Assembly: GCA_002388665.1 (NCBI GenBank)
Contig: DGMY01000040.1
Coordinates: 8,093 to 72,092, forward strand
From: Opitutia bacterium UBA4506
Lineage (GTDB): Bacteria > Verrucomicrobiota > Verrucomicrobiia > Opitutales > Puniceicoccaceae
DNA: 64,000 nt
Direction of reading: 5' to 3'
Both the position numbers and the translations under genes were made by a program. Positions 4,283-63,954 of the stretch are shown piece after piece. Every line of letters starts with the position of its first letter. The first letter of the stretch is position 1. The notes under the pieces were generated by a model. That model worked only from the letters and a program-made list of their open reading frames with translations. It was not told the DNA's origin and ran no database searches.

Positions 4283-5100
4283 GTCGAGCAGACCGTATCG
4301 CCCACGCCTTCGATCCAGAACGTCTCAAGGCGGTTGGAAAATCGTCCGCATTCGTTTCATACACATGTGCCGGAGATCCGGACCTTGATACCTCGGTAAA
4401 GATTTACCGCAGTCTAATCGAGGCGGGCGTGGATGTGCTGGAGATCGGTGTTCCTTTCAGTGACCCGCTTGCAGACGGGCCCACGAATCAGCGGGCATCG
4501 GAGAGGGCATTGGCAAATGGGATGACCTCGGATCGAGTCTTTGAGCTCGTACGGCGTGTTCGCGAGATCTCGGACGAAGTGCCGATTGTTTTCTATACCT
4601 ATTACAATCTGGTATTTTCCCGCGGGCATGAAGAATACATTCAACGTGCGAAGGCCGCAGGGGTTGATGGGATTCTCGTCTTGGATCTACCTCCCGAAGA
4701 GGGGGAAGACCACCTCGCCCTCTGTAAGAAGCACGATTTGAAGACGGTTCTCATCGTGGCGCCGACGACCCCGGAGTCGCGTCTTCCCTTGATCAGTGCG
4801 GCTGCTACAGGATTCATCTACTATGTATCGCGGGAAGGGGTTACCGGCGAGCGGACTGATCTTGCACAGGGCGTTGAAGAGTCTCTGCAAAAAATCCGTG
4901 GAACTACGACATTGCCGGTAGTCGTTGGATTTGGGATTTCCAACCAAGAACAAGTTCGCGCTACGGCCAAGTCTGCATCTGGGGTAGTTGTAGGGAGTGC
5001 GATTGTCAAAAAGTGCGAGAATCTTTCGACAGATTCGGAAGATGGCTGGGCGGAGTTTGATGAGTTTTTGCGTGACCTGGTTGCGGGTTGCACAGTTTGA
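4279..5100 (+). CDS. trpA: Tryptophan synthase alpha chain
   Basis: VLEIGVPFSDPLADGP, YYVSREGVTG, VVVGFGIS, GVVVGSAIV. Confidence 0.96.
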   Translation: MSRADRIAHAFDPERLKAVGKSSAFVSYTCAGDPDLDTSVKIYRSLIEAGVDVLEIGVPFSDPLADGPTNQRASERALANGMTSDRVFELVRRVREISDEVPIVFYTYYNLVFSRGHEEYIQRAKAAGVDGILVLDLPPEEGEDHLALCKKHDLKTVLIVAPTTPESRLPLISAAATGFIYYVSREGVTGERTDLAQGVEESLQKIRGTTTLPVVVGFGISNQEQVRATAKSASGVVVGSAIVKKCENLSTDSEDGWAEFDEFLRDLVAGCTV

Positions 5101-5162
5101 TTCTTCGAGCGCGCAGGAATGGATCTTGCGCCGAAGGACAGGACGTTTTTTTCTCCCCATTC

Positions 5163-5993
5163 ATGCTTTCTTTCTTTGCTAGAAATCCTGTCCCGGTGAT
5201 TCGCACCATCTTCTCCGGAACGTTGCTTCTTCTGCTGGCCTCTGGCTGTGCTACGATGGATAGTCGCAGTGCGGACGAAGTTGCGGAGCACCGGAAGCGA
5301 TATGAAAGTGCCATGGCGGAGTTGGAAAAGGTGTCGTTTGGCTCGGAGAAAGTGGTATCTTTGCATCCGAGAATGATTGCGCGGTCGAAAATGTCAGCGC
5401 AGCGGGTTGAGATTCGGGCGGAAGCTCAGGATGACGGCCTGCAGTTTGCGAATCGCTCCGCGACGGTTGTGGGATATCCGGTGATGCTGGAACTTACGAA
5501 CGAGGACAGTGTTGTGGTGAAAATCACTGATTTGGAAATTCGTCGGCGACCTCCTCATTTGGTTGGCCGGTATGAAGACCTGATTGGAACAGATCCGATT
5601 GTGCTGCAACCGCAGGAGTCGTGGGTAGGCAAATTTATTGTGTCACGAAAGAGCGGTTGGTATCGCGTAACGGTACAAGCAGCGGCTCCTGAAGGTTGGC
5701 TTGCGATTCCCGGACCAAATACTCGCAGTGTATACTTTAGGGAAGAGACCAACGCGAATCTAGGTTCTGCTGGATACAGTGCAGTTGTGACCTTCTGGAA
5801 TCTGAGCGAGGAGGCGGCGACCTTCCGTTATTGGCTAACCGCAGACGACGGGCACGGGGTACCCAAGTCATCCTTTTCTCAAGGGCTGATGGAGCTGGAG
5901 GCTGGTGAAGCGATCCAGATCGAAGTGATTACAGATACCCGAAACTGGTCACTGGTCACGGCACCGCCTGTCGAGGAAGAAGGAGGAGAGTAA
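5163..5993 (+). CDS. Hypothetical lipoprotein
   Basis: Lipobox LLLLLASGC after the likely start at 5163; beta-rich body; no family recognised. Confidence 0.6.
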
Positions 5994-5998
5994 GTCGT

Positions 5999-6793
5999 AT
6001 GAAAGTGTACCTCGATTTAATGCGTAGAATTCTTGAGGAAGGATCCTACCGTGACGACCGCACCGGAACGGGAACTTGGTCGCTCTTTGGCGCACAGCTT
6101 CGTTTTCGGATGGAGGATGGCTTTCCACTGGTGACAACCAAGAAAGTTCACCTGAAGTCCATCATCCACGAATTACTGTGGTTCTTGCGTGGGGAGACCA
6201 ACGCCAAGTCTCTTCAGGAGAACGGGGTAAAAATCTGGAACGAGTGGGCTGATCCTGACGGGGAACTGGGACGAGTGTACGGCGCACAATGGCGTTCCTG
6301 GCAGCGACCTGACGGAACCCATATCGATCAGATTGCGGAAGTAGTTCGGTCGATTCGGGAGAATCCCGACAGCCGTCGGCACATGGTATTGGCCTGGAAT
6401 CCGGGGGAAATTGAGCAGATGGCTTTGCCACCGTGTCACGCGCTCTTCCAATTCTACGTAGCAGACGGCCGCCTGAGCTGCCAATTGTATCAGCGTAGCG
6501 CTGACATTTTCCTGGGTGTTCCCTTTAATATCGCTTCCTATGCACTGTTGCTGCAGATGATGGCGCAAGTATGCGGATTGCAGGCGGGCGACTTTGTGCA
6601 CACCTTTGGGGATGTTCATTTGTACTCCAACCACAAGGAGCAAGCGAAAACGCAATTGTCTCGAGAACCGCGGCCATTGCCACGAATGATCATCAATCCA
6701 GCACGCCTGGAGATCGACGATTTTTGCTATGAAGACTTTGAGTTGGAGGGCTATGATCCCTGGCCCGCGATTCGGGCCCCAGTTGCCGTCTAG
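5999..6793 (+). CDS. thyA: Thymidylate synthase
   Basis: [22 protein letters not shown] (catalytic Cys), [18 protein letters not shown]. Confidence 0.98.
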
Positions 6794-6796
6794 AGA

Positions 6797-7288
6797 ATGA
6801 AGGACCTTACCCAAGTCAGCAGCGTATCCTGGATAGCGGTTGCCGCGATGGCGGAGAATCGCGTGATCGGCAAGGACGGCGCACTCCCCTGGCATCTGCC
6901 CGGAGATCTAAAATTCTTCAAGCAGCTAACGACTGGAGGAACGATACTCATGGGAAGGAAAACCTTTGAGTCGATCGGTCGACCTCTGCCCAGGAGACGG
7001 AATCTGGTATTGAGCCGGTCCGGAGTCAACGCTCCTGGGATCGAAGTCTTCTCCTCCGTAGATGATCTCTTGGGCGTTCTGGAGCGGGATGAACGCATCT
7101 TTGTTATCGGAGGTGAGGAGATTTACCGGCTGACCATGGACCTTTGGACTGAAGTGTATTTAACGCGGGTCTCGGGTAATCCTGATGGAGATGCCTTTTT
7201 TCCTGAGTTTGAGGAGCAATTCCCCGAAGTGCGCACTGTGCACGAGGAAGAAGACTTCACCGTAGAGCACTTCCGCCGGAAATTGTAG
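6797..7288 (+). CDS. folA: Dihydrofolate reductase
   Basis: VIGKDGALPWHLPGDLKFFK, MGRKTFESIGRPLPRRRN, VIGGEEIY, GDAFFP; directly after thyA. Confidence 0.95.
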   Translation: MKDLTQVSSVSWIAVAAMAENRVIGKDGALPWHLPGDLKFFKQLTTGGTILMGRKTFESIGRPLPRRRNLVLSRSGVNAPGIEVFSSVDDLLGVLERDERIFVIGGEEIYRLTMDLWTEVYLTRVSGNPDGDAFFPEFEEQFPEVRTVHEEEDFTVEHFRRKL

Positions 7289-7327
7289 GAGTCGACTGGG
7301 GATTCATTTGCGGGGCTATTTGCCCTG

Positions 7328-7981
7328 ATGACGGGCTCAACATTTTCCGCACACTTGATTGCAGGAAGCGGAAAACGTGGCATGCTGGCAGCCATGGTTG
7401 AAGATACTCGAAAGACCGTCACTCTCTTTCGCCATGGCGAAACGGAGTGGAGCCGCAGCGGACAGCACACATCGATCACCGATTTACCTTTAACTGAGAA
7501 AGGGCGGGCCGAGGCGCAACAGTTGCAACCCCTCTACAGCGGAGGCAATTTTTCTTTGATTTTATCGAGCCCGCGGAGAAGAGCCTTGGAAACAGCCGAA
7601 CTTGCGGGTGCGGGGAAGGACGTGGAAGAGGACGCTGACCTCGCGGAATGGTACTACGGGGATTATGAAGGTCTGACGACAGCTCAGATACGATCGAACG
7701 TTCCCGACTGGACCATCTTTACCCATCCGGTGCCGGGTGGGGAGACTGGAGCTGAAGTGGCCGCTCGGTGTGACCGGGTAATAGACCGGGCGATTCGGGC
7801 GGATGGGGACGTCGCGCTTTTCGCGCACGGTCATCTATTTCGTGTATTCGTCGCGCGATGGCTGCGATTGGGTCCAGAAGAGGGCAGGCATTTTGCCATA
7901 GGCACGGCCACTAGGAACCTACTTGGATACGAGCACGAGAACCGAGCCGTATTGATCTGGAACGCACCGACTAGCGCTTGA
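7328..7981 (+). CDS. Histidine phosphatase (phosphoglycerate mutase family)
   Basis: RHGETEWS motif, EWYYGDYEG, AHGH; true start may be 7382 or 7394. Confidence 0.9.
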   Translation: MTGSTFSAHLIAGSGKRGMLAAMVEDTRKTVTLFRHGETEWSRSGQHTSITDLPLTEKGRAEAQQLQPLYSGGNFSLILSSPRRRALETAELAGAGKDVEEDADLAEWYYGDYEGLTTAQIRSNVPDWTIFTHPVPGGETGAEVAARCDRVIDRAIRADGDVALFAHGHLFRVFVARWLRLGPEEGRHFAIGTATRNLLGYEHENRAVLIWNAPTSA

Positions 7982-8078
7982 GGCGGAGGCCGGTCAATTC
8001 GGTGGGAGCCAGGGCTTTGTCGGAACTTCCTCGATGACGGAAGAAGCTGACGGAGATTGAAGAAGAGATCCTGGCGGC

Positions 8079-9098
8079 TCAACCTTGGATTGTGTCGAGC
8101 AGGGCCTCGACGCAGTCGATCCGTGTCTTGGGGCTAAGCCCGTGGCCGCCGTTAAAAATAAATCCTGGATCGCCCTTGCGGTCGTCGAGGATTCTCCTGG
8201 CTGCCGCTCGCACGGATGCGGGGTCGGTCTCGAGGATCAGGGGATCAAGATTGCCTTGAATCGCAATGGAGGGCCCGACGGTATCGCGGGCAAGGGCGAG
8301 TGGAGTAGACCAATCAATCGCGATAGCCTCACTCTTCACCGATCGCTGCTCGTTGAGACGGCTGGCGGCGCCGCGGGAGAAGAAAATCGACGGTTTATCG
8401 CAGGAGCGGATGATTTGGCGGATGGGTTCCAGGCACCATTCCTCGTAGAAATCGGCGGGACAAAGAGAGGCCCATGAGTCGAAGAGTTGGATCGCGTCAG
8501 CCCCTGATTGGCATTGGAGTTTCACGTACTCGGAGCAGGCCGCAGTGATCTTCTCGCGCAGAATGCGGGCGGCATCGGGAGCCCGATAAAGCAGCTCACG
8601 GAGATTTCGTCCCTCGCCGGGGGAGCCTCCCTCAACCAAGTAGAGTGCCAGAGTCCAGGGTGCTCCGCAGAATCCCAGTAGAGTGGTTTCCTCCCTGAGT
8701 TCAGACCGCAATTGCTGGAGAGCTTTACCTACGTAGCTCAAGCGCTCGGCAGTACCCTCAGCCTGAAGCGCATTGACCTCCTCCTCCGATCGCACTGTGC
8801 GTTCCAGCTCAATTCCACCCTGATCACGGAATCGATAATCGACCCCGAGAGCTTCGGGAATGACCAGAATATCGCTGAAGAGGATAGCGGCGTCTAGGGT
8901 GGGGAACCGCTGGAGCGGTTGAAGCGTGACCTCGGTTGCCAAATCAGGCGTTTTGACCATTGTCCGAAAATCATGCTTCTGTTTGAGGGCTCGGTACTCG
9001 GGCAGGTAGCGACCTGCTTGACGCATCAGCCAGACCGGAGGCCGGTCGGAATTTTGGCAGGCGAGGGCATCGAGAAAACGTTTCCGAGAAGTGATCAT
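8079..9098 (-). CDS. hemE: Uroporphyrinogen decarboxylase
   Basis: PVWLMRQAGRYLPEY, DAAILFSDIL, QGNLDP, FNGGHG. Confidence 0.96.
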   Translation of the reverse strand: MITSRKRFLDALACQNSDRPPVWLMRQAGRYLPEYRALKQKHDFRTMVKTPDLATEVTLQPLQRFPTLDAAILFSDILVIPEALGVDYRFRDQGGIELERTVRSEEEVNALQAEGTAERLSYVGKALQQLRSELREETTLLGFCGAPWTLALYLVEGGSPGEGRNLRELLYRAPDAARILREKITAACSEYVKLQCQSGADAIQLFDSWASLCPADFYEEWCLEPIRQIIRSCDKPSIFFSRGAASRLNEQRSVKSEAIAIDWSTPLALARDTVGPSIAIQGNLDPLILETDPASVRAAARRILDDRKGDPGFIFNGGHGLSPKTRIDCVEALLDTIQG

Positions 9099-10060
9099 GG
9101 GCGGGATTCGGTCGATTCAAAAGGGGCTCCTGGAGAGAGCCAGTCGCGGGGGCGAAGAAATTCCTCTACCAGTAGGGCTTCGGGCGTGTCTGGGGTTGGT
9201 TCCCAGCCGTAAGACCAACAGGCCTCGGCAGGGAGAGACATCAGGATGGATTCGGTGCGGCCACCGGAGACCAAGCCGAAGCGAGTTCCCCTGTCGTGGA
9301 GAAGATTGAACTCGACGTAGCGGCCTCGTCGAAGGCGCTGAAACTGTTTTTGTTCCTCGTTAAAATCGGTGGCGGCGCGTTGGTCTAAGAGTGAAAAGAA
9401 GGCGTCGCGGAAGCCGTATCCAACTGATTTTGCGAACGCGAAAGTACGCTCGAACCCGAGTTCACAAAAGTCGTCGAAGAAGATGCCTCCGACCCCACGG
9501 CACTCATCGCGGTGGGGGAGATAGAAATAGCGATCGCATTCCTGTTTGAATCTGCGGTAGAGGCCCGGCTGAGACTGCTCGCAGATATCGTGAGCCGCCT
9601 GGTGCCAACGGATCGCATCCTCTTTAAATCCGTAGCACGGAGTCAGATCAAACCCGCCGCCAAACCACCATTGTATTTCCTGATCCTCGTGTTCTGGAAG
9701 GATGAAAAATGCGCGCACATTCATGTGGGCAGTCGGAGCAAATGGATTACACGGATGAAGCACGACGGAGACACCCATGGCTTCAAACGGACGACCGGCG
9801 AGCTCTGGCTTCCTGGCGGATGCAGGGGCTGGTAGGGCGTCGCCGCATACGCGGGAGAAATTGACACCACCCTTTTCGAGGATTCGACCACCTTGAACGG
9901 CGCGGGAAATTCCGCCGCCACCGCCGGGTCGATTCCACTTGTCCTCAATGATCAATTCGGAGCCCTCGCGGGCCTCGATCTCCTTGCAGAGATCATCCTG
10001 AAGGCGGAGGAAAGCCTCTTGGACCCGATTTGGTTCTTCAGGCTGAATGGTCTGCCTCAC
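9095..10060 (-). CDS. hemF: Oxygen-dependent coproporphyrinogen III oxidase
   Basis: EKGGVNFS, HMNVR, WFGGGFDLTP, RRGRYVEFNL..DRGT.FGL..GGRTESILMSLP. Confidence 0.96.
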   Translation of the reverse strand: MRQTIQPEEPNRVQEAFLRLQDDLCKEIEAREGSELIIEDKWNRPGGGGGISRAVQGGRILEKGGVNFSRVCGDALPAPASARKPELAGRPFEAMGVSVVLHPCNPFAPTAHMNVRAFFILPEHEDQEIQWWFGGGFDLTPCYGFKEDAIRWHQAAHDICEQSQPGLYRRFKQECDRYFYLPHRDECRGVGGIFFDDFCELGFERTFAFAKSVGYGFRDAFFSLLDQRAATDFNEEQKQFQRLRRGRYVEFNLLHDRGTRFGLVSGGRTESILMSLPAEACWSYGWEPTPDTPEALLVEEFLRPRDWLSPGAPFESTESRP

Positions 10061-10929
10061 TCTCCGGTGGGTAGCTCAGATTTCAACTGACGCCTGCGCG
10101 AATCGAGAAGCGGAAAGAATCCTTCGGCTTGGAGGGTTTCGGCAGCTGAATCTGAAAGCAGGAACTCGATGTAGGGCGCGAGAAAGCGGTACTGGCTGCG
10201 GGGAACGCAGATGTAGTAGGGGAGGGAAAGCGGATAGTCACCGTAGTTGACGTTCTCGAGGGTAGGGCCGAACGAAATCTCGCCCTCGGAAGATTCGATG
10301 CGAAGCGTTTTGAGATCTGGTGAAAGTGGAATCGTGTCAATGAAGCCAATCGCCCCATCATTGTTGCTGACATAGGACTCCAGGCGCAGGGAGGAGCTAA
10401 ATTCTTGGATCCCGGAACGAAGGGCTTCGCTCTCGAGGAAAGTTGCGCTGAACAAGTCGAGAATCGGGCTCAAGCCGGAGTTTGCGTAGGCGGCTTGGAT
10501 ATTACGATTTTGCCAGGAACCGGAGAGACCCAGAGCCGACCATCGAGCAATCGCATTCTCGCTCAGCGAGCCAAAGATGCCTCCAATTTGTTGTTGGGAA
10601 AGGGAATCGAGAGGATTCTTTTCATGTACAACAATCGCACCGATCTGGAATCCCAGGGGAATGACGGGGAAATCGTAGTCGCTGGGAGTTTTCTCGGGCA
10701 TGGCCACGAGAATGATGTCGGCATCGCCCTCGTAAAATTCACGGAAAGCGAGGAGACTGCCACCTAGGTTCACCTCGAGAAAGTCGCCCTCGGATTCGGC
10801 AAACTCTTTGAGAGATTCGATCAGGGCCTCTGGAATGTAGTCGGAGCCCTCAACCTTGATTACGCGGGCATGAAGACTCGATCCGAGGAGGGTCAAAGAG
10901 AGAAGCGAAAGGAGAAAGAAGGGTTTCAT
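10057..10929 (-). CDS. PstS-like periplasmic substrate-binding protein (divergent)
   Basis: Signal peptide; IVVHEKNPLDSLSQQQIGGIF, W..LG, GAIGF, GDYPLS PBP pattern. Confidence 0.7.
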   Translation of the reverse strand: MKPFFLLSLLSLTLLGSSLHARVIKVEGSDYIPEALIESLKEFAESEGDFLEVNLGGSLLAFREFYEGDADIILVAMPEKTPSDYDFPVIPLGFQIGAIVVHEKNPLDSLSQQQIGGIFGSLSENAIARWSALGLSGSWQNRNIQAAYANSGLSPILDLFSATFLESEALRSGIQEFSSSLRLESYVSNNDGAIGFIDTIPLSPDLKTLRIESSEGEISFGPTLENVNYGDYPLSLPYYICVPRSQYRFLAPYIEFLLSDSAAETLQAEGFFPLLDSRRRQLKSELPTGE

Positions 10930-10940
10930 ATACTAGGAAA

Positions 10941-12305
10941 TTAAGATTCGAGGAGTTCGGGCCAGCGTGCAAGCTTCCGATGAAGAGTACGGCGACTCAT
11001 CCCCAGTAATTCTGCAGCCTGGGTCTTGTTTCCACCGGTTTTTTGCAGGGCATTGCGCAAAAGTCGTTTCTCATTTTCTTCCACGGAAAGAGGATTTGAG
11101 ACCAGGCCGGAAATGGCGGTTCGGGCTGGGGGACCCTCGTCAAAAAACTTGGTTTCGAGATCGTACTCGGTCACGAGGCTACCGCGCTTCAGGATGACTA
11201 TGTTTTCGCAGAAATTCCGCAGTTCGCGGATGTTTCCCGGCCATCGATATTTCTGAAGGACCCCGACCGCATCGGGAGAGAATGTAACCGGGGGCAAATT
11301 GTTCTCCCGGCTGAAAGTGTCGACGTAGTATTCGAGAAGGAGTGGTATATCCTCCTGCCGATCGCGCAAAGGAGGGAGATCCAGCGAGATTACATTGAGT
11401 CGGTAGAGGAGATCGGCGCGGAAATTCCCGCGTCGGGCCATTGCGGCCAAATCTTTATTGGTGGCACAAACCAACCGGGCATCGATCGAAATTGTTTTAA
11501 CGCTCCCGAGCCTTTCGAGAGTGCGGGTTTCGAGAAAGCGCAGCAGCTTTATCTGGGTTGAAGCGTCGATCTCGCCGATCTCGTCGAGAAACAGCGTGCC
11601 CCCATCAGCCGCTTCGAACCGCCCGATCCGTCGTTCGGTGGCCCCGGTAAAGGCACCTTTCTCGTGACCGAACAGTTCGCTTTCCAGAAGATTGGATGCC
11701 AACGCCGCGCAATGAACGGCGACGAACGGTCGGCGACTCCGGTCGCTGTTCTGGTGGATGGCCTGAGCGATCAGCTCTTTACCGGTTCCCGTTTCGCCCT
11801 CGATCAAGACCGTAGCCTTGGAGGGGGCGACCAAGCGCACGGTATCGAGAATCTTTTGCAGTTTCGGGGAGTTGCCGAGAATCTCGTCAAACTTGAATTT
11901 CTGGTCAAGGCGCTGGTGAAGCGTCTGGTTCTCCTTTTCGAGTTGTTCGGTTTTGAGGGCGCGCTCGATCAGAAGTTCGAGTTTCTCCAGGCTTACCGGC
12001 TTGGTGAGGAAATCGTAGGCTCCCCGCTTCATTGCATCCACGGCGGTCTCCACATTCCCGTAGGCGGTCATCATGATGCAGACTGGCCGCGGCGAAATTG
12101 TCAGAGTCCGTTCGATCACGGACATGCCTGATTTGCCGGCCATCCTCAAATCGGTCAAAACCACATCAAAGCGGTCGCTTTCGAGATGATTGAACGCCTC
12201 TTTGGCATTGTTGGCGGTGGTGATCTCGTAACGGTCCTCCAATGCAGCCTCCAGACCTTCGAGGGTATGGGGTTCGTCATCTACGATTAGAATGGATGCT
12301 GGCAT
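10941..12305 (-). CDS. Sigma54-dependent response regulator (NtrC/AtoC family)
   Basis: REC (VVLTDLRM), Walker A GETGTGKE, GAFTGA, Walker B LFLDEIG, WPGNIREL, Fis HTH. Confidence 0.95.
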   Translation of the reverse strand: MPASILIVDDEPHTLEGLEAALEDRYEITTANNAKEAFNHLESDRFDVVLTDLRMAGKSGMSVIERTLTISPRPVCIMMTAYGNVETAVDAMKRGAYDFLTKPVSLEKLELLIERALKTEQLEKENQTLHQRLDQKFKFDEILGNSPKLQKILDTVRLVAPSKATVLIEGETGTGKELIAQAIHQNSDRSRRPFVAVHCAALASNLLESELFGHEKGAFTGATERRIGRFEAADGGTLFLDEIGEIDASTQIKLLRFLETRTLERLGSVKTISIDARLVCATNKDLAAMARRGNFRADLLYRLNVISLDLPPLRDRQEDIPLLLEYYVDTFSRENNLPPVTFSPDAVGVLQKYRWPGNIRELRNFCENIVILKRGSLVTEYDLETKFFDEGPPARTAISGLVSNPLSVEENEKRLLRNALQKTGGNKTQAAELLGMSRRTLHRKLARWPELLES

Positions 12306-56343: not shown

Positions 56344-56436
<93 letters not shown>

Positions 56437-56470: not shown

Positions 56471-56584
56471 AGGCGGAATACCCCTATTTAAGCTGGCTTT
56501 CAGGCGATTGCCTTGGTGCAAGGAGGCGAACATGGAGAAACAGTTGTTGACAGGTTTGAACAGAATTTGCAACCATCTGCAACC

Positions 56585-57712
56585 ATGTCGGAGAGGGATA
56601 ATGCAACCAAAGGGGTCCTGAAGGGAATTCGGAAGTGCGAAAGGAAGGATCGCCGCAATCGTTTTGGTGTCGAGTGGAAAGACAATGGACGCCGCCGATT
56701 CCGATTTTTCAAGGAGGAGAAAGAGCGAAATGCTTTTTTCGAGGCAAACTACAAGGCTCGTGAGGTAGAGAATTTTTCCCTTTCGGAATGGTTGCGCTGG
56801 CAGGATATCAAACGAGAGGCGGAAGAAATCGGCATCGAGCCCGAGGCCGCGCTTGCCCTAGCGCGCCGACAGGGGGCCAAGGGCTTCGTGAAAGGAAAGA
56901 CCCTCGGCGATGCTACAGCGAGTTATCTGGCGACCGCCGAGCGAAAGGGACGGTCTGAGGACTATCTTCGCCATCTCCGTAGCTTCTTTGATCGGTTAAA
57001 TGCCTCTCTCGGAAAGGAAATGCCTCTACTCGAAGTTTCCCGCGAGCAGATGCAGAACTTTTTTGACGGGCTAGGGGTTGGTGCAATCACCTACAAGAAC
57101 TACCGCGCTTACTCGACGGCGCTCTTCAATCACTGCATCCAAGAGGAGTGGATGGATCGTTCTCCGGCAGCGAGGCTTGTCATCCCAGAGGTGAAAAAGG
57201 AGGAACCGGGAATCCTGACGCCCGATCAGACTTGTGACTTGCTTCAAGCTGCTCGGACCATTTCTGACGAGCTTGCTGCGCTTCTCGCGCTGCAGTTCTT
57301 TGCGGGGATACGAAATGCGAACGTCACTCGTTTCGAAGTGGGGGAGATTAACGCAAAGGCGAAGACCATAACGATTCCGGCAGCGAAGTTCAAAACGAAG
57401 AAACGGCACGTCATCGAAGACGCAGCGCCCGTTCTATGGAAATGGCTCGCATTGGCCGACATGGACGAGCTTTGTCGCTGGACCGCCCGGAATTTCAATT
57501 GGAGGAAGGGCCAGGCATTCAAATCTGCCGGAATCGAACCGCCGAAGAACGCGCTTCGGCATTCGTTCGCTTCCTACCGTTGCGCCCTGGACGGAAGCGC
57601 GGAAAAGGCTTCATACATCCTAGGGCACCAGAACCCCCGCGAAATTTGGCAAGCATACAAGGCGACCGCGAGCCGGGCCGACTCGAAAAGATTTTTCGCA
57701 ATTTCTCCATAA
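56585..57712 (+). CDS. Tyrosine recombinase / integrase
   Basis: AGIRNANV (R), KFKTK (K), NALRHSFASY (R-H), LGH, IWQAY (Y); basic N-terminal arm-binding-like region. Confidence 0.9.
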   Translation: MSERDNATKGVLKGIRKCERKDRRNRFGVEWKDNGRRRFRFFKEEKERNAFFEANYKAREVENFSLSEWLRWQDIKREAEEIGIEPEAALALARRQGAKGFVKGKTLGDATASYLATAERKGRSEDYLRHLRSFFDRLNASLGKEMPLLEVSREQMQNFFDGLGVGAITYKNYRAYSTALFNHCIQEEWMDRSPAARLVIPEVKKEEPGILTPDQTCDLLQAARTISDELAALLALQFFAGIRNANVTRFEVGEINAKAKTITIPAAKFKTKKRHVIEDAAPVLWKWLALADMDELCRWTARNFNWRKGQAFKSAGIEPPKNALRHSFASYRCALDGSAEKASYILGHQNPREIWQAYKATASRADSKRFFAISP

Positions 57713-58322: not shown

Positions 58323-60044
58323 ATGGCTTACGCGATTTATCGGCAATTGAAGATTAAGTCTCTGTCGCATTTAGTGAGGGCGACTCGACACAACGAAAGG
58401 AAGCAGGAAGTCAGCAACGCTGATCCGAATTGCCGTCAGCAAAATGTGGTAGAAGCCTCAGATGATCCGATTGTTTCAGCATGGAAGGAGAAGGTTGGTG
58501 ACCAGAAAATTCGCAAGAATGGGGTGCTAGCTGTCGAGCTGCTGTGCGGATTTTCTCCGGAAGCTCGAGATTGGATCTCTCCAGATCGATGGCTCTCAAG
58601 TTGTAAAGAATTCGTGGCAGAGGAGTTCGGAGGATCAAGAAATATTATCCATTCAGCCCTCCATATGGATGAAAAAACTCCGCACTGTCACTTTATTGTG
58701 GTCCCGTTACGTCCAGATAATCAAAGGCTATCGGCATCGTTTTTCTCCGATGGTTCGAGAAATCTGGCGACTCGACAGACACGATTTGCTCAGAAGGTCG
58801 GGGTCGAATTTAATCTATTACGAGGTGATGAAGGGAGCAGGGCAAAGCACATTCCACCATCCGAATATCGCGCACAAATGGATGCAGCTGCTGAGGAAGC
58901 GCCGGAAGTTGTTGCAAAGAGAATGCTCGAGTCGGCCGAAGATCACGCTCGGAAGGCAACAGCGCAAATGGAGATAGAGGCCCGTGCCCGTAAAGACGCC
59001 GAAATTCGAGCTGAGCAAGCTCAACTGCGTGCGAAGCGGGCCGAGGCCGAGGCTCGCAAGCAGGGGGATAGGCTCCGCGAAATGGACCTTTTTGTAGTAA
59101 TGCAGGCCTGCGGATTTGAGGCGCAACGGGTGGAGGGGAAGGAGCACATTTTCGAGACCGAGCAAGGATTCGTTTCGATTAACCCCGAGAAACAAAAATA
59201 CTCCTGCGATTGGTCACGAGGAGGGGGCGGGGCAATCGATCTGGCCAAGGAGGTTAGAGGGCTCACTTACGGCGAGGCAATACAATGGCTCGCCAGTTTG
59301 GACCCAGCTGCAGCAGCGTCGAGTGCAGCGGCCTATGCTGAGCGTTTTGCAAGAAAGGCGAAGCCGGTCGACGAGAATGCACGGACTCAACATCAGATCG
59401 AGCCCGATGACGGTAAACTGGATCAGGTAAGAAACTATTTAATCAGCCGTCATATTGATCCCGATCTAGTCGATTCGGAAATCGAAAAGGGAAACCTATG
59501 GGCGAATCGTTTCGGCTCTTGTGTATTCATTCACCCGGATCCTGATCATCCCGAAGCGCTATTAGGTGCGGAAATTCGAGGAACTTTATCAAATTTCAAG
59601 GCGTTCGCTGGCAGGAAAGGGTCCTACGTCGTCGCAGATCTTGGAAGCGACGAGATCGCGGTGGTCGAGTCGGCCATAGACGCTTTAAGCCTCCGCTCTC
59701 TCGGCTATAAGGGTGAGGTTCATAGTGCAGCTGGTTCATCAGTGCCCGCGAGAATCCTGGCCGAAGCAAGAGAGGGGAAACTCGTTCTTGCCTTCGACGA
59801 CGATCAGGCGGGACGACGTGGTTGCGACCGGGCGAAAAAGGTCCGGCCGGACGCAAAGCACCTCAGGCCGCCATCTGGGAAAGATTGGAATGGCTACTTA
59901 TCTCTCATTCGTCGCGCCGCTAGTGGGGCGCGTCGAATCACCTCAAAAATGATAAAAACAGGAAAACGATATGCTCAATACATTGCTAACACTCGGAAAT
60001 GGCGCAAAGAAACACCTGCCGGCGAGTCAGTATCTCGGGGCTGA
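58323..60044 (+). CDS. MobV (Pre/Mob) relaxase fused to DUF3991 and TOPRIM primase-like domains
   Basis: MAYAI.R..K.K, RHNER, GVLAVE, LHMDEKTPHCH; GGGAIDL..EV..L.Y.EA..WL; YLISRHID; VVESAIDALS, LAFDDDQAG, KDWN. Confidence 0.88.
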   Translation: MAYAIYRQLKIKSLSHLVRATRHNERKQEVSNADPNCRQQNVVEASDDPIVSAWKEKVGDQKIRKNGVLAVELLCGFSPEARDWISPDRWLSSCKEFVAEEFGGSRNIIHSALHMDEKTPHCHFIVVPLRPDNQRLSASFFSDGSRNLATRQTRFAQKVGVEFNLLRGDEGSRAKHIPPSEYRAQMDAAAEEAPEVVAKRMLESAEDHARKATAQMEIEARARKDAEIRAEQAQLRAKRAEAEARKQGDRLREMDLFVVMQACGFEAQRVEGKEHIFETEQGFVSINPEKQKYSCDWSRGGGGAIDLAKEVRGLTYGEAIQWLASLDPAAAASSAAAYAERFARKAKPVDENARTQHQIEPDDGKLDQVRNYLISRHIDPDLVDSEIEKGNLWANRFGSCVFIHPDPDHPEALLGAEIRGTLSNFKAFAGRKGSYVVADLGSDEIAVVESAIDALSLRSLGYKGEVHSAAGSSVPARILAEAREGKLVLAFDDDQAGRRGCDRAKKVRPDAKHLRPPSGKDWNGYLSLIRRAASGARRITSKMIKTGKRYAQYIANTRKWRKETPAGESVSRG

Positions 60045-60992: not shown

Positions 60993-61424
60993 TCACCCCA
61001 ATGCGACTTGGAAGCAAGTAATTCCCTTGCTCCGCCAGTAATCGACCATCGAGCCTTTGTCCTCGAACACTAGGTCTGGGACGATGCCGAGTCGCTCCAG
61101 GAGTTTCGGCTTGACGATTGTGTCCGTCCGGAAGTCTCCGTCCGGACGCATCAGGAGATGGCTGTAGCCTTCGATTCCGTGTTTCCGGAGCCAATTCTCG
61201 GTCTGTGGCCGCACCGATTCCCTGCGGCCGGTGAGCAATATCATCTCGGGACCGGCTCCGGACGCATAGAGGGCCTGGTACGTCCGAATCACCGGGAGAT
61301 GCGGCAGATCCTCTCCGCAGCGGGAGAAAAATTCATCCCAGTTCTTTTTTTTGGCTTCCAGCAACTTCGCGCGCTCCCCCACTAGGGAGAGCGTACCGTC
61401 TATGTCCCATACGACAGTTTTCAT
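60993..61424 (-). CDS. Stand-alone HAD phosphatase resembling the phage T4 polynucleotide kinase 3'-phosphatase domain
   Basis: VVWDIDGTL (DxDxT), LTGR, T..WL, LLMRP.GDFR.D..VK, VFED, WRSKGITCFQV. Confidence 0.85.
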   Translation of the reverse strand: MKTVVWDIDGTLSLVGERAKLLEAKKKNWDEFFSRCGEDLPHLPVIRTYQALYASGAGPEMILLTGRRESVRPQTENWLRKHGIEGYSHLLMRPDGDFRTDTIVKPKLLERLGIVPDLVFEDKGSMVDYWRSKGITCFQVALG

Positions 61425-61525
61425 CCAATTGCAGAGGCCATAAAAAGATGTGATCGTCAATGCAAATACTGAACATATGTATATTTTTCATTTGCCCGAG
61501 GTGCCCTCCCTGCCAGAATACCCTC

Positions 61526-61936
61526 ATGGAAAGTGGCGAAACAGTGAAGGTCTGCCTGGCGGCAGTGTTTTGGGATCTTCTCCGGTCGGACGACTACTTT
61601 GACAAGATCCGGGACACCGACGAGATCGAGGAATTCTGCGACAGCGTATTCCGGAACGGGGTTGGCCTTTCGGGGGATGAGCAGGAACTCTACTATCGCG
61701 AACGCTTGGAAGCATACGTGAAGGAGTTCGCCGAGAAGAAGGGACTCAAGGTCTATACGGAAGAGGATGATCGGCTAAGGCTTGATGAAGCGGATTTTTC
61801 AGAGAGCGAACTCGTGTTGCTTCGTGAAGCGCGGAAGACAATGACGGATGAGGAAATTGCAGAGATGCTTGAAATGGGCCGTCTCGGAAAGTTGGAGTAC
61901 ATGCGCAGGCGAGGCAGGCTGAAGAAGTTTAACTAG
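61526..61936 (+). CDS. Hypothetical acidic protein
   Basis: Open frame, very D/E-rich with basic C-terminal tail; no family recognised. Confidence 0.6.
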   Translation: MESGETVKVCLAAVFWDLLRSDDYFDKIRDTDEIEEFCDSVFRNGVGLSGDEQELYYRERLEAYVKEFAEKKGLKVYTEEDDRLRLDEADFSESELVLLREARKTMTDEEIAEMLEMGRLGKLEYMRRRGRLKKFN

Positions 61937-61953
61937 ATTATTGCGAGTCTTAC

Positions 61954-62031
61954 ATGAAGGAACTCACCGCAGGGAAGAGCCTGGCCATCCCAGATGTCCA
62001 CCAGGACATCGAGTGGGACTTGCCAACGTAA
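61954..62031 (+). pseudogene. Truncated 5' copy of the metallophosphoesterase gene (25 codons)
   Basis: MKELTAGKSLAIPDVHQDIEWDLPT* versus MTELTAEKCLVIPDVHQDIEWVERIF at 63196. Confidence 0.8.
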
Positions 62032-62056
62032 GCGGCCTATGTTTTAACATAGGGGT

Positions 62057-62332
62057 ATGGATGGAGTTCCCCAAGAATTAAGCGCGTACCTGAGCCGGAT
62101 CGGGCGCAAGGGCGGTCAGCGCAGCCGCCGTACTTTGACTCCTGACGAGGCAAGGAGGATGGTGCGTGTTCGCGAAGCGCGGAAGCTCTACGCGAAATAC
62201 CATACCCGCTGCTTCTGGAACGCTCCCGGTGATTTCAAACCTGGGTTGGCAGATATTGATTGGGTAGCCGAGAGACTGCGTAAGCACGGTGGCCGCGAAG
62301 GATGGGAGGCTGCTTCGAGATTATGCCACTAA
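62057..62332 (+). CDS. Small putative antitoxin (KGG motif plus helical C-terminal domain)
   Basis: YLSRIGRKGGQRSRRTL..YHTRCFW..LRKHGGREGW; stop overlaps the NTase start. Confidence 0.65.
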   Translation: MDGVPQELSAYLSRIGRKGGQRSRRTLTPDEARRMVRVREARKLYAKYHTRCFWNAPGDFKPGLADIDWVAERLRKHGGREGWEAASRLCH

Positions 62333-63177
62333 CTCCATTCCAGAAACGGGTGTTGGCGTTGCTGACCAAGAACAGGTCCGAGGAGAGCCATCTTGCCGGA
62401 GCAACGGGGCTTGGACTCTCACCGGAATCGAGTCGATTTAGCTACGACTTGGATTACTTCCACGACACCGAGGAGGCTGTTGCCGAAGCATTTGCTCTTG
62501 ATCGGGCCGCACTCGAAGCCTCTGACATGGACGTAGAAGGGTTGGTGACGCAGCCGGGATTTATCAGAGCTTTGGTTTCGGACTCCGAGAATGAACTTCG
62601 TGTGGAATGGGCGCATGACAGCGCGTGGCGGTTCATGCCTCCGGTTGAGATGGAAGGAGTCGGCTTTGTTTTGCATCCGGTTGATCTGGCGGTGAACAAG
62701 GTGCTGGCCCTTGCGGGCCGGGACGAACCCCGCGACCTGATCGACACGCTGTTCGTGCATGAACACATCCTTCCCCTCGGAGCTTTGGTTTGGGCCGCAT
62801 CGGGGAAAGATCCGGGGATGAACCCGGCAATGCTGATCGAATTGCTGCAACGCAAGGGGAAGCTCAGGGAGGAGGACTTGCGCTACCTGGAGATCGAAAC
62901 GGTTCTGGATCTAGCGGAACTGAGATCGGCATGGAGGGATGCTCTTGCCGAGGCGAAATCCTTCGTGAATTCCAGGCCATCGGATGAAGCGGGTCGCCTT
63001 TACGTCGATCCGGCCAGCGGCCGCTTCATCGCCCCTGAGAAGGATCAGGAAGTCGAATTGCACGAAGCGACACGGGGAGGGGTGTTGCCATTCGTGGAGG
63101 GACTCGGGTGCGATCGTCCGGACGAAATGACCTCCCGGTTCTTTGCTCTTAAAGGTCCGGGTTCGCAAAAAATCTAA
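62323..63177 (+). CDS. AbiEii/MenT-type nucleotidyltransferase toxin
   Basis: HLAGATGL (GGTAL-like), RFSYDLDYF (SxDxD), NKVLALAGRDEPRDLID; start at MPLTPFQ. Confidence 0.78.
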   Translation: MPLTPFQKRVLALLTKNRSEESHLAGATGLGLSPESSRFSYDLDYFHDTEEAVAEAFALDRAALEASDMDVEGLVTQPGFIRALVSDSENELRVEWAHDSAWRFMPPVEMEGVGFVLHPVDLAVNKVLALAGRDEPRDLIDTLFVHEHILPLGALVWAASGKDPGMNPAMLIELLQRKGKLREEDLRYLEIETVLDLAELRSAWRDALAEAKSFVNSRPSDEAGRLYVDPASGRFIAPEKDQEVELHEATRGGVLPFVEGLGCDRPDEMTSRFFALKGPGSQKI

Positions 63178-63195
63178 GTTAGATTTTTTACGCCC

Positions 63196-63954
63196 ATGAC
63201 CGAACTCACCGCAGAGAAGTGCCTCGTCATCCCAGACGTCCACCAGGACATCGAGTGGGTCGAGCGGATCTTCGACCGGGAGATCGGTTGGGATCGTTGC
63301 GTCTTTCTCGGGGATTACTTCGATCCGAAGGGAAAGCCGGTCGGGGAGTTGGCGGGAGTTCGGGCTACCGCCCGGTATATCCGGGAGCTAACCGGGCGTC
63401 ACGGCGATCAGATCACTCTCCTGTGGGGAAACCACGACATCCCCTATTGGGAAATGAAGAAGCGAATGCGGACGGGAAACCTGGATGAATTTTTCTACGG
63501 GGGCGGGGTTGCGAGTCGAAACAAAAGCCGGGTCCACAACATCTTCAAGGAATGGGACGATGAATTCGTCGGCCGCTTGCGGCTCTTCACCGTCGTCAAC
63601 GGCCGTCTCCTTTCCCACGCCGGACTCGCCCGGTCCTTCTGGCCGGAAGCCGATTCGATCGACGAGTCCCTCGGTCTCCTGGAACGGCAATCGAAAGAGG
63701 CTCTCCTGGCCGTCCACCGGCAACCTCATCCCCTGCTTGCTCCCGGCCAGTCACGAGGCGGATCTCAGGAATTTGGCGGGTTGACCTGGCAATGCTGGAT
63801 CGGGGATTTCTGCGATACGTTGCCCCTTCCTCAGATCGTCGGCCACACGGCATCCTCGGGGGTCCGGCAAAAGGGAAAGAGCTTTTGCATCGACGGGACG
63901 CAGACCTGCTATGCGGTGATCAAGGGAGAGCGGATCCGATTTGAATGCGCCTGA
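63196..63954 (+). CDS. Calcineurin-like metallophosphoesterase
   Basis: PDVH (DxH), LGDYFD (GDxxD), GNHD, LSHAG, QIVGHT. Confidence 0.9.
   Translation: MTELTAEKCLVIPDVHQDIEWVERIFDREIGWDRCVFLGDYFDPKGKPVGELAGVRATARYIRELTGRHGDQITLLWGNHDIPYWEMKKRMRTGNLDEFFYGGGVASRNKSRVHNIFKEWDDEFVGRLRLFTVVNGRLLSHAGLARSFWPEADSIDESLGLLERQSKEALLAVHRQPHPLLAPGQSRGGSQEFGGLTWQCWIGDFCDTLPLPQIVGHTASSGVRQKGKSFCIDGTQTCYAVIKGERIRFECA

Follow-up and report, generated by a model that had tools for sequence, protein, structure and literature searches.

Phage RNA-repair systems include HAD and calcineurin-like phosphatases among their parts (PMC7824862), and 2',3'-cyclic phosphodiesterase activity has been described for lambda phosphatase and C. 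thermocellum Pnkp (PMC2190708). The antitoxins of the nucleotidyltransferase toxins MenT1 and MenT3 silence them by prompting the toxin to autophosphorylate at a conserved serine or threonine of its active site (PMC11375011). Relatives of these enzymes are encoded close together at positions 60993-63954 of a 64,000-nucleotide stretch of DNA from Opitutia bacterium UBA4506, here called the window, which corresponds to positions 8093-72092 of its contig (DGMY01000040.1) in a genome of 4.03 Mb that is 99% complete. They are a HAD_PNKP-type phosphatase (HAD), a nucleotidyltransferase of the DUF1814/AbiEii/MenT fold (NTase) with a small partner, and a calcineurin-like metallophosphoesterase (PE). 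A previous, sequence-only reading had assigned the genes to these families, and all were recovered where it had placed them, well above chance; it had also proposed that the three enzymes form one mobile system acting on tRNA or RNA ends. We judge the chances to be even that the locus holds two separate modules on a mobilizable element, not one three-enzyme tRNA system. No major concept is changed by this, and the proposed three-enzyme system is probably not a unit.

The older of the two modules would comprise the stand-alone HAD, a divergently encoded acidic protein and PE. HAD and PE would be phage-derived polynucleotide 3'-end-healing enzymes that strip 3'-phosphate or 2',3'-cyclic phosphate from RNA (possibly DNA) ends made by ribotoxins or defence nucleases. 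Because this module has no kinase or ligase of its own, it would only reopen 3' ends and could not reseal breaks. The second module would be a self-contained MenT/AbiEii-like pair, inserted later into the start of the PE gene. Its 284-residue NTase would, by prediction, add nucleotides to tRNA 3' ends and so block them, and the 91-residue partner is predicted to silence the NTase, possibly via autophosphorylation of Ser47, as in MenT1 and MenT3.

The nucleotidyltransferase pair as an inserted cassette

On either side of the NTase pair lies one copy of a 65-nt direct repeat (61953-62017 and 63195-63259), and the two copies are 89% identical. The right copy makes up the beginning of the PE gene, which starts 18 nt past the NTase stop codon on the same strand, and the left copy belongs to a remnant of a PE gene start (61954..62031, + strand), whose first 21 codons are homologous to the N-terminal end of PE and are followed by four foreign codons and a stop. 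This remnant sits directly behind the gene for the acidic protein. When the region was compared with a related metagenomic element that carries the same cassette, similarity started just past the scar and stopped at the NTase stop codon. Since a duplicate of the PE start lies on both sides of it, the NTase pair (a cassette of about 62018-63194) was inserted secondarily into the start of the PE gene, duplicating 65 nt. The scar therefore reveals an earlier arrangement in which HAD, on the minus strand, was followed by the acidic protein and PE, both on the plus strand.

The NTase, a candidate toxin, is encoded at 62323..63177 (+) and has 284 residues when counted from M8 of a 291-residue open reading frame (ORF) that begins at 62302. 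Its match to Pfam AbiEii (PF08843; E 3.5e-5, 24.3 bits) lies marginally above the cut-off of 22.5 bits, and its AlphaFold model, with a predicted local distance difference test score (pLDDT) of 88.6, had JHP933 (4ok0, 2.9e-8) and MenT4 (6y56, 6e-6) as best Foldseek matches. In an alignment of 45 homologues, residues R45, S47 and D51 of the R-x-S-x-D-x-D motif and residues K133, R140 and R144-D145 were invariant, and D49 was nearly so. The pair thus resembles the MenAT and AbiE systems (MenT1-4 of M. tuberculosis, AbiEii of S. agalactiae, JHP933 of H. pylori) in the NTase fold, in the RxSxDxD catalytic and phospho-acceptor motif, in the K/R/RD motif, in the small overlapping partner gene upstream, and in a patchy distribution over variable contexts and mobile elements.

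The partner, a candidate antitoxin, is a basic protein of 91 residues (isoelectric point, pI, 10.4) from an uncharacterised family, and its gene (62057..62332, +) overlaps the NTase start. In each of the six loci that were compared, the window included, it was conserved immediately 5' of the NTase, with 28 invariant alignment columns; the homologues at other NTase loci have 88-96 residues and 50-82% identity. Searches of Pfam, NCBIfam and PADLOC gave no match to AbiEi (COG5340, winged-helix) or to any other family, no relative was found in the PDB, and a KGG-like motif stayed below threshold. Judged by these comparisons, the partner is not an AbiEi protein. The pair differs from MenAT and AbiE in this respect, as its partner is neither AbiEi/COG5340 nor a recognisable MenA1, and also in that the PADLOC AbiEii models reached no significance on the NTase (best E 0.0025, 15 bits).

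Ser47 occupies the motif position equivalent to the MenT phospho-acceptor, the meaning of the motif being taken from the MenT work (PMC11375011). By this analogy we infer that partner-induced autophosphorylation of Ser47 is the likely control mechanism of the NTase. If the two-module reading holds, the NTase and its partner would offer a compact pair for probing the autophosphorylation model. Homologues of the NTase number more than 2,700 across phyla, and under that reading a well-conserved DUF1814/MenT-like subfamily of this size with an undescribed small basic partner would widen the antitoxin range of the toxin family.

The distribution of the pair also sets it apart from its neighbours in the window. 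The NTase and its partner (partner identity 50-74% in these cases) occur together in four otherwise unrelated loci (L022-L025), beside kdp genes, a transposase, and AraC and URO-D genes; these surroundings are chromosomal or transposase-flanked, and neither PE nor HAD is present there. Such a distribution suggests that the pair behaves as an autonomous unit of the toxin-antitoxin type with predicted toxicity. A search of 300 further genomes from the class found PE in 15 and the NTase in 34, and with the Pfam model no HAD_PNKP; PE and the NTase were both present in three genomes, about 1.7 being expected by chance, and always on separate contigs. The co-occurrence of the three families, which the sequence-only reading had named as a check, was not borne out in the class.

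To study the gene neighbourhoods of PE relatives, at least 368 of which were detected in genomes and at least 198 in viral contigs, 80 of each were kept, and 8 kb on either side of PE was searched in 79 cellular loci, with tblastn and with profiles built in this analysis, and in 80 viral loci. The NTase was absent within 8 kb from all 80 viral PE loci and from all 80 viral HAD loci, and its subfamily was not found in IMG/VR viral contigs. It never adjoined PE or HAD in the 300 class genomes or in 239 loci (159 PE, 80 HAD), the only other co-occurrence being that in the L018/L021 element discussed below. With the pair separately distributed and inserted at the PE start, the proposal that the three enzymes make up one module is not supported. 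The same reading had set the preference of MenT3 for tRNA-Ser beside the insertion of the element at a tRNA-Ser gene. Since tRNA genes are ordinary targets of tyrosine integrases, this insertion is no evidence for a MenT3-type link; the cassette occurs elsewhere outside any tRNA-Ser context, and we regard the match as a coincidence.

HAD, PE and the gene neighbourhoods of their relatives

HAD is encoded on the minus strand (60993..61424) as a stand-alone HAD_PNKP-type polynucleotide 3'-phosphatase-like protein of 143 residues from the ATG at 61424. A listed ORF with a TTG start reaches 61460, and the ATG is probably the true start because the homologues are 143-145 residues long. The protein matched Pfam HAD_PNKP (PF25109) with E 9.1e-23 and 81.4 bits (cut-off 27.6) and phrog_415 'polynucleotide kinase' with 1.2e-35, and the best PDB sequence matches were Pnkp1 (4xrp, 3.7e-13) and T4 Pnkp (1ltq/5uj0, 1e-5). 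The motifs WDIDGTLS, LLTGRRES, VKPK and FEDK align with those of T4 Pnkp and Pnkp1, and residues D7, D9, G10, T11, G66, R67, K105 and D122 (143-residue numbering), which include the DxDGT nucleophile, were invariant among 26 homologues, as were the G-R-x-E, K and D motifs. HAD thus resembles T4 Pnkp and the Pnkp1 component of the bacterial Pnkp1-Rnl-Hen1 complex (PF25109) in the DxDxT acyl-phosphatase motifs, in the whole of the domain and in its phage provenance. It is unlike them in being a lone phosphatase domain: HAD and its close homologues (143-150 residues) have no N-terminal P-loop 5'-kinase domain, and neither Hen1 nor an RNA ligase was found near HAD or in the genome. The nearest homologue, with 71% identity, is a marine phage gene that stands solitary between terminase and portal.

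In the related element, the HAD gene is in frame and otherwise intact, with ATA replacing our ATG start (L018 7360-7372, minus strand). A Shine-Dalgarno-like run, GAAGGGAA, lies upstream of it, and either a rare start codon is used there or the start has been lost.

Divergent from the HAD gene lies the gene for the acidic protein (61526..61936, +), which has 136 residues and a pI of 4.7 and belongs to no known family. Its start was chosen by homology to a 111-residue protein of the L018 element (65-67% identity). No family was found for it in Pfam, PHROGs or PADLOC, and the sole NCBIfam match was below threshold.

PE (63196..63954, +) is a single-domain, PPP-like binuclear metallophosphoesterase of 252 residues (Pfam Metallophos, E 1.5e-8). 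Its metal ligands D14, H16, D40, N79, H80, H141 and H217 were invariant in 67 homologues, and the AlphaFold model (pLDDT 95) shows one compact catalytic domain spanning residues 9-251. Foldseek searches with this model returned a Shewanella cold-active phosphatase, PP5 and calcineurin as best matches, and the top 50 were all protein phosphatases. A PE profile run against the PDB matched Shelph (1e-6), RLPH2 (1e-4) and also PP2A, and matched the phosphatase domain of C. thermocellum Pnkp (4j6o) more weakly (8e-3). PE shares the binuclear metal site and the PPP/lambda-phosphatase-like superfamily with the central domain of bacterial Pnkp, lambda phosphatase and the phage calcineurin-like repair phosphatases. 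Unlike 4j6o, to which its sequence similarity is weak, the Shewanella-like and Rhizobiales-like phosphatases are closer to PE, which carries no fused kinase or ligase. A tblastn search with PE against 72,556 plasmids gave no match. The genome holds a second PE paralogue with 35% identity (contig C43:106764-107495); since the kinase, RNA-ligase, HAD and NTase profiles built here matched nowhere else in the genome, this paralogue has no such neighbour.

Relatives of PE are commonly held by viral contigs (25-33% identity), and their neighbourhoods there include genes of RNA repair. Within 8 kb of PE, the 80 viral loci contained a Pnk-like P-loop kinase in 19 cases, a PHA02142-type RNA ligase in 22, and a kinase, a ligase or both in 27. 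Full-length Pnkp, with kinase and HAD domains, was present in 6 of the 80, from three phage lineages, and apart from these no HAD was found at that distance. The usual phage arrangements are RNA ligase (Rnl), kinase and PE, in that order with other genes between, or PE, DNA ligase and Pnkp. In whole viral records that bear a ligase, the RNA ligase lay within 6 kb of PE in 16 of 22, against 4.2 expected from random placement, and with one record per lineage the count was 10 of 16 against 2.9 expected (P about 5e-5), although this null is liberal for phage genes because early genes cluster regardless. The PE tree shows a kinase or ligase context in at least seven separate clades. The sister of the clade formed by our PE and those of L002 and L018 (local support 95%) is a bacterial PE with a Pnk-like kinase 53 nt downstream, and neighbours of the kinase or ligase type are present for PE relatives both in phages and in the bacterial contig L016.

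Several of the phage kinases that adjoin PE have about 160 residues and no HAD domain, as in bacterial Pnkp, and by analogy PE could supply the 3'-phosphatase function beside them. A role of PE in healing nucleic-acid ends is plausible because its phage relatives cluster with RNA ligase and polynucleotide kinase and because the nearest PE outside its own clade precedes a Pnk-like kinase. The end-healing role suggested by the sequence-only reading thus finds backing, for PE, in the phage neighbours and in the kinase of the sister PE, and finds none in the closest structures. If the two-module reading holds, metallophosphoesterases of the PE type would be good candidates for the missing 3'-healing enzyme in phage clusters of ligase and HAD-less kinase.

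In five phage loci (L127, L129, L134 and L144, at about 4500-11100 in each, and L133, at 6491-9620), a PHA02142-type RNA ligase, PE, an ATP-dependent DNA ligase and full-length Pnkp occur together, forming compact heal-and-seal sets with two different 3'-phosphatases. Among cellular genomes, PE relatives are widespread in the Nitrosopumilaceae, which are ammonia-oxidising archaea (L051-L053, L057, L058, L063, L066 and others), and in one group of this family PE stands in conserved synteny with genes for a RadA-like recombinase and for a very large protein resembling a surface protease. In L012 (155-10111), a PE relative with 46% identity and a 780-residue TPR protein lie just behind TnsA, a 748-residue protein, an AAA_22 ATPase and TniQ/TnsD; this PE relative looks like cargo of a Tn7-like transposon.

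Weighing the explanations of the locus

The five cargo genes of the window, encoding the acidic protein, PE, HAD, the partner and the NTase, are also found with 65-82% amino acid identity, in a different order and with other genes interspersed, in a circular metagenomic element of 16.6 kb (L018/L021), which was assembled independently from several metagenomes (L002/L003, L018-L021). The two elements share no backbone: the other 20 proteins of the metagenomic element are encoded nowhere in our genome, and our backbone proteins are missing from it. HAD and PE remain adjacent in both, with a divergent arrangement in the window and a convergent one in L018, and PE and the NTase are about 3 kb apart in the related element, with opposite-strand genes between them. 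Block inheritance followed by rearrangement can explain the shared set.

Several observations weigh against the reading of two modules with end-healing phosphatases. The presence of the same five genes in the 16.6-kb element could reflect selection for keeping them together. The structures closest to PE are those of protein phosphatases and not the Pnkp domain, and the clustering with ligases was measured against the liberal null mentioned above. Neighbour clustering revealed no conserved neighbour among the 79 cellular PE loci, where the only synteny is lineage-specific, in the Nitrosopumilaceae, and no homologue of HAD, the NTase, the kinase, the ligase, the partner or the acidic protein was found within 8 kb in these loci. 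HAD stands alone in about 58 of 80 viral HAD loci, with a PE-family ORF within 8 kb in only 1 of the 80 and an RNA ligase in only 2. Finally, no RtcB, PF09414 RNA ligase or Pnk-like kinase was found in the 99%-complete genome, which therefore has no complete repair pathway. Matches to AAA_33 elsewhere in the genome were considered as Pnk-like kinases and rejected, as they are of a generic kind that is present in all control genomes. The absence of a kinase or ligase from the window, already remarked upon in the sequence-only reading, thus extends to the 3.7 kb of contig beyond it and to the whole genome. If the two-module reading holds, a pair on an integrative element capable of 3' healing only, in a genome free of RNA ligase, would raise the question of which 3' damage can be fixed without sealing.

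The shared element is what speaks most for a single tRNA/RNA 3'-end conflict system made of HAD, the NTase pair and PE, together with the acidic protein, in which the phosphatases would open 3' ends for the NTase to extend or rebuild or would control which tRNA ends are accessible to the toxin. The conservation of five genes between elements with unrelated backbones fits this explanation, as do the clustering of RNA-repair genes with PE relatives and the pairing of phosphatases with template-independent NTases in phage RNA-repair systems (PMC7824862). We nevertheless find it improbable: the pair is flanked by an insertion scar and found alone elsewhere with its own conserved partner, it was not found in IMG/VR or in the company of PE or HAD in the surveyed genomes and loci, the NTase has the DUF1814 toxin fold and is not a repair NTase of the RlaP or CCA-adding type, and the sole other co-occurrence comes from one related lineage and is explicable by block inheritance. 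A ligase-independent version of the idea, in which five genes would act on the same tRNA 3' ends, the phosphatases unblocking them and the NTase blocking or rebuilding them, is slightly harder still to credit; PE might then also re-activate a phospho-silenced toxin, and the ends could carry phosphate, cyclic phosphate or pyrophosphate left by ribotoxins or by tRNA pyrophosphorylation of the toxSAS/CapRel type. It keeps this small share of our confidence because the 16.6-kb element is the best evidence for a functional tie, and, if true, it would describe a mobile kit able both to attack and to rescue the CCA end while requiring neither kinase nor ligase.

The solitary occurrence of many relatives suggests another explanation, namely that HAD and PE are mutually unrelated cargo, each serving on its own in counter-defence or metabolism by acting on small molecules such as nucleotides, cyclic nucleotides or NAD-derived signals. 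Phage stand-alone HAD_PNKP genes are mostly solitary, like the homologue with 71% identity, as are the cellular PE relatives, and small-molecule phage phosphatases such as T5 Dmp and Adpp are established counter-defences (PMC13728456; bioRxiv 10.64898/2026.01.28.702374). Adpp, which counters aRES, was itself set aside as a relative, being an unrelated Macro-domain enzyme. The adjacency of HAD and PE in both elements, the three phage lineages in which PE accompanies full-length Pnkp and the many more in which it accompanies a kinase or ligase, and the Pnk-like kinase downstream of the sister PE all speak against this explanation, which we hold to be unlikely. The same adjacency recalls the defence system Metis type I, in which a calcineurin-like enzyme, the NAD+ diphosphatase MisA, and the HAD phosphatase MisB stand side by side on an accessory element (bioRxiv 10.1101/2025.11.05.686725). 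PE would in that case be a triggered effector that destroys NAD+ or another metabolite, and HAD would clear the trigger nucleotide in uninfected cells; a KAP NTPase gene downstream of PE, of a type frequent in defence islands, would suit such a role. The likeness ends there, however, since MisA carries an N-terminal PUA-like sensor domain, for which the 252-residue PE has no room, and MisB belongs to PF13419, whereas HAD matched only PF25109, PF03767 and PF24694 in Pfam at E up to 0.01. HAD and PE do not form one operon, PADLOC finds nothing, and the frequency of PE relatives beside RNA-repair genes in phages fits poorly with a host abortive effector, so that a Metis-like defence appears very unlikely. 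Scarcely more than a slim prospect is that PE is a protein phosphatase that re-activates the NTase by removing the phosphate from Ser47, in a switch composed of the partner, the NTase and PE. It would accord with the Ser/Thr/Tyr protein phosphatases being the nearest structures of PE, with the short same-strand distance between the two genes and the invariant phospho-acceptor serine, and with the silencing of MenT toxins by autophosphorylation (PMC11375011) and the dephosphorylation of MenT3 by PstP in vitro (PMC11541572). The scar, however, marks the NTase-PE adjacency as secondary, and the two genes are well separated in the related element; other NTase loci have no PE and other PE loci no NTase, and it is with RNA ligase and kinase that PE relatives associate.

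The 16.6-kb element was recognised as circular, or as a tandem, from the overlap of L018 (1-13580) and L021 (1-10119) at both ends with 99.6-99.7% identity. No recognisable integrase, relaxase or replication gene was found in it. Its other genes encode DUF2779, DUF6361, DUF3024 and FGase-like proteins, an AAA ATPase and a second phosphoesterase of the Metallophos_2 type. The C-terminus of PE is altered in L018-L020, where the protein has 279 residues compared with 253 in L002, suggesting a frameshift variant.

The tRNA-Ser island and its other genes

An integrative mobilizable element, inserted at a tRNA-Ser gene, carries HAD, the NTase pair and PE as cargo. The target, a tRNA-Ser(GGA) gene identified with ARAGORN (56344..56433, +), forms the left end of the island and is followed on the plus strand by a tyrosine integrase (56513..57712, +; Pfam Phage_integrase, E 1.3e-8), a small helix-turn-helix protein, a MobV relaxase fused to a DUF3991/Toprim primase-like domain (58323..60044, +; NCBIfam MobV 9e-32, Pfam Mob_Pre 6.9e-28, Toprim_2 4.8e-11), two small ORFs and the stretch with HAD, the NTase pair and PE. 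In a genome of the same genus, the syntenic tRNA-Ser locus is present without any island gene. The tRNA target, the integrase, the relaxase and this island-free locus together make the mobile-cargo setting real, as the sequence-only reading had supposed. The right junction of the island could not be placed by means of the same-genus genome, in which the downstream synteny is too shuffled, and no direct repeat of the tRNA 3' end (attR) turned up in the 11 kb that remain before the contig end; elsewhere in the assembly the matches were intact tRNA-Ser genes.

PADLOC had no match to HAD, PE, the acidic protein or the partner; its only hits on the NTase were the non-significant AbiEii matches given above. 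The MobV relaxase-primase also matches the PADLOC 'RTasDnaG-like' DRT model (3.9e-12) via its zinc-finger/primase part, and given this origin of the match, a DRT defence label for 58323-60044 is a false lead.

Beyond the window the contig extends for 3.7 kb, a part that the sequence-only reading had suggested inspecting for a ligase or kinase; it holds only a 754-residue KAP-family P-loop NTPase and one short ORF. The KAP NTPase gene (Pfam 4.3e-38) lies downstream of PE at 64901-67165 in window numbering (L001 10901-13165) and may be additional defence-type cargo of the island. It is preceded by two copies of a 37-nt hairpin repeat (L001 10135-10171 and 10206-10242).

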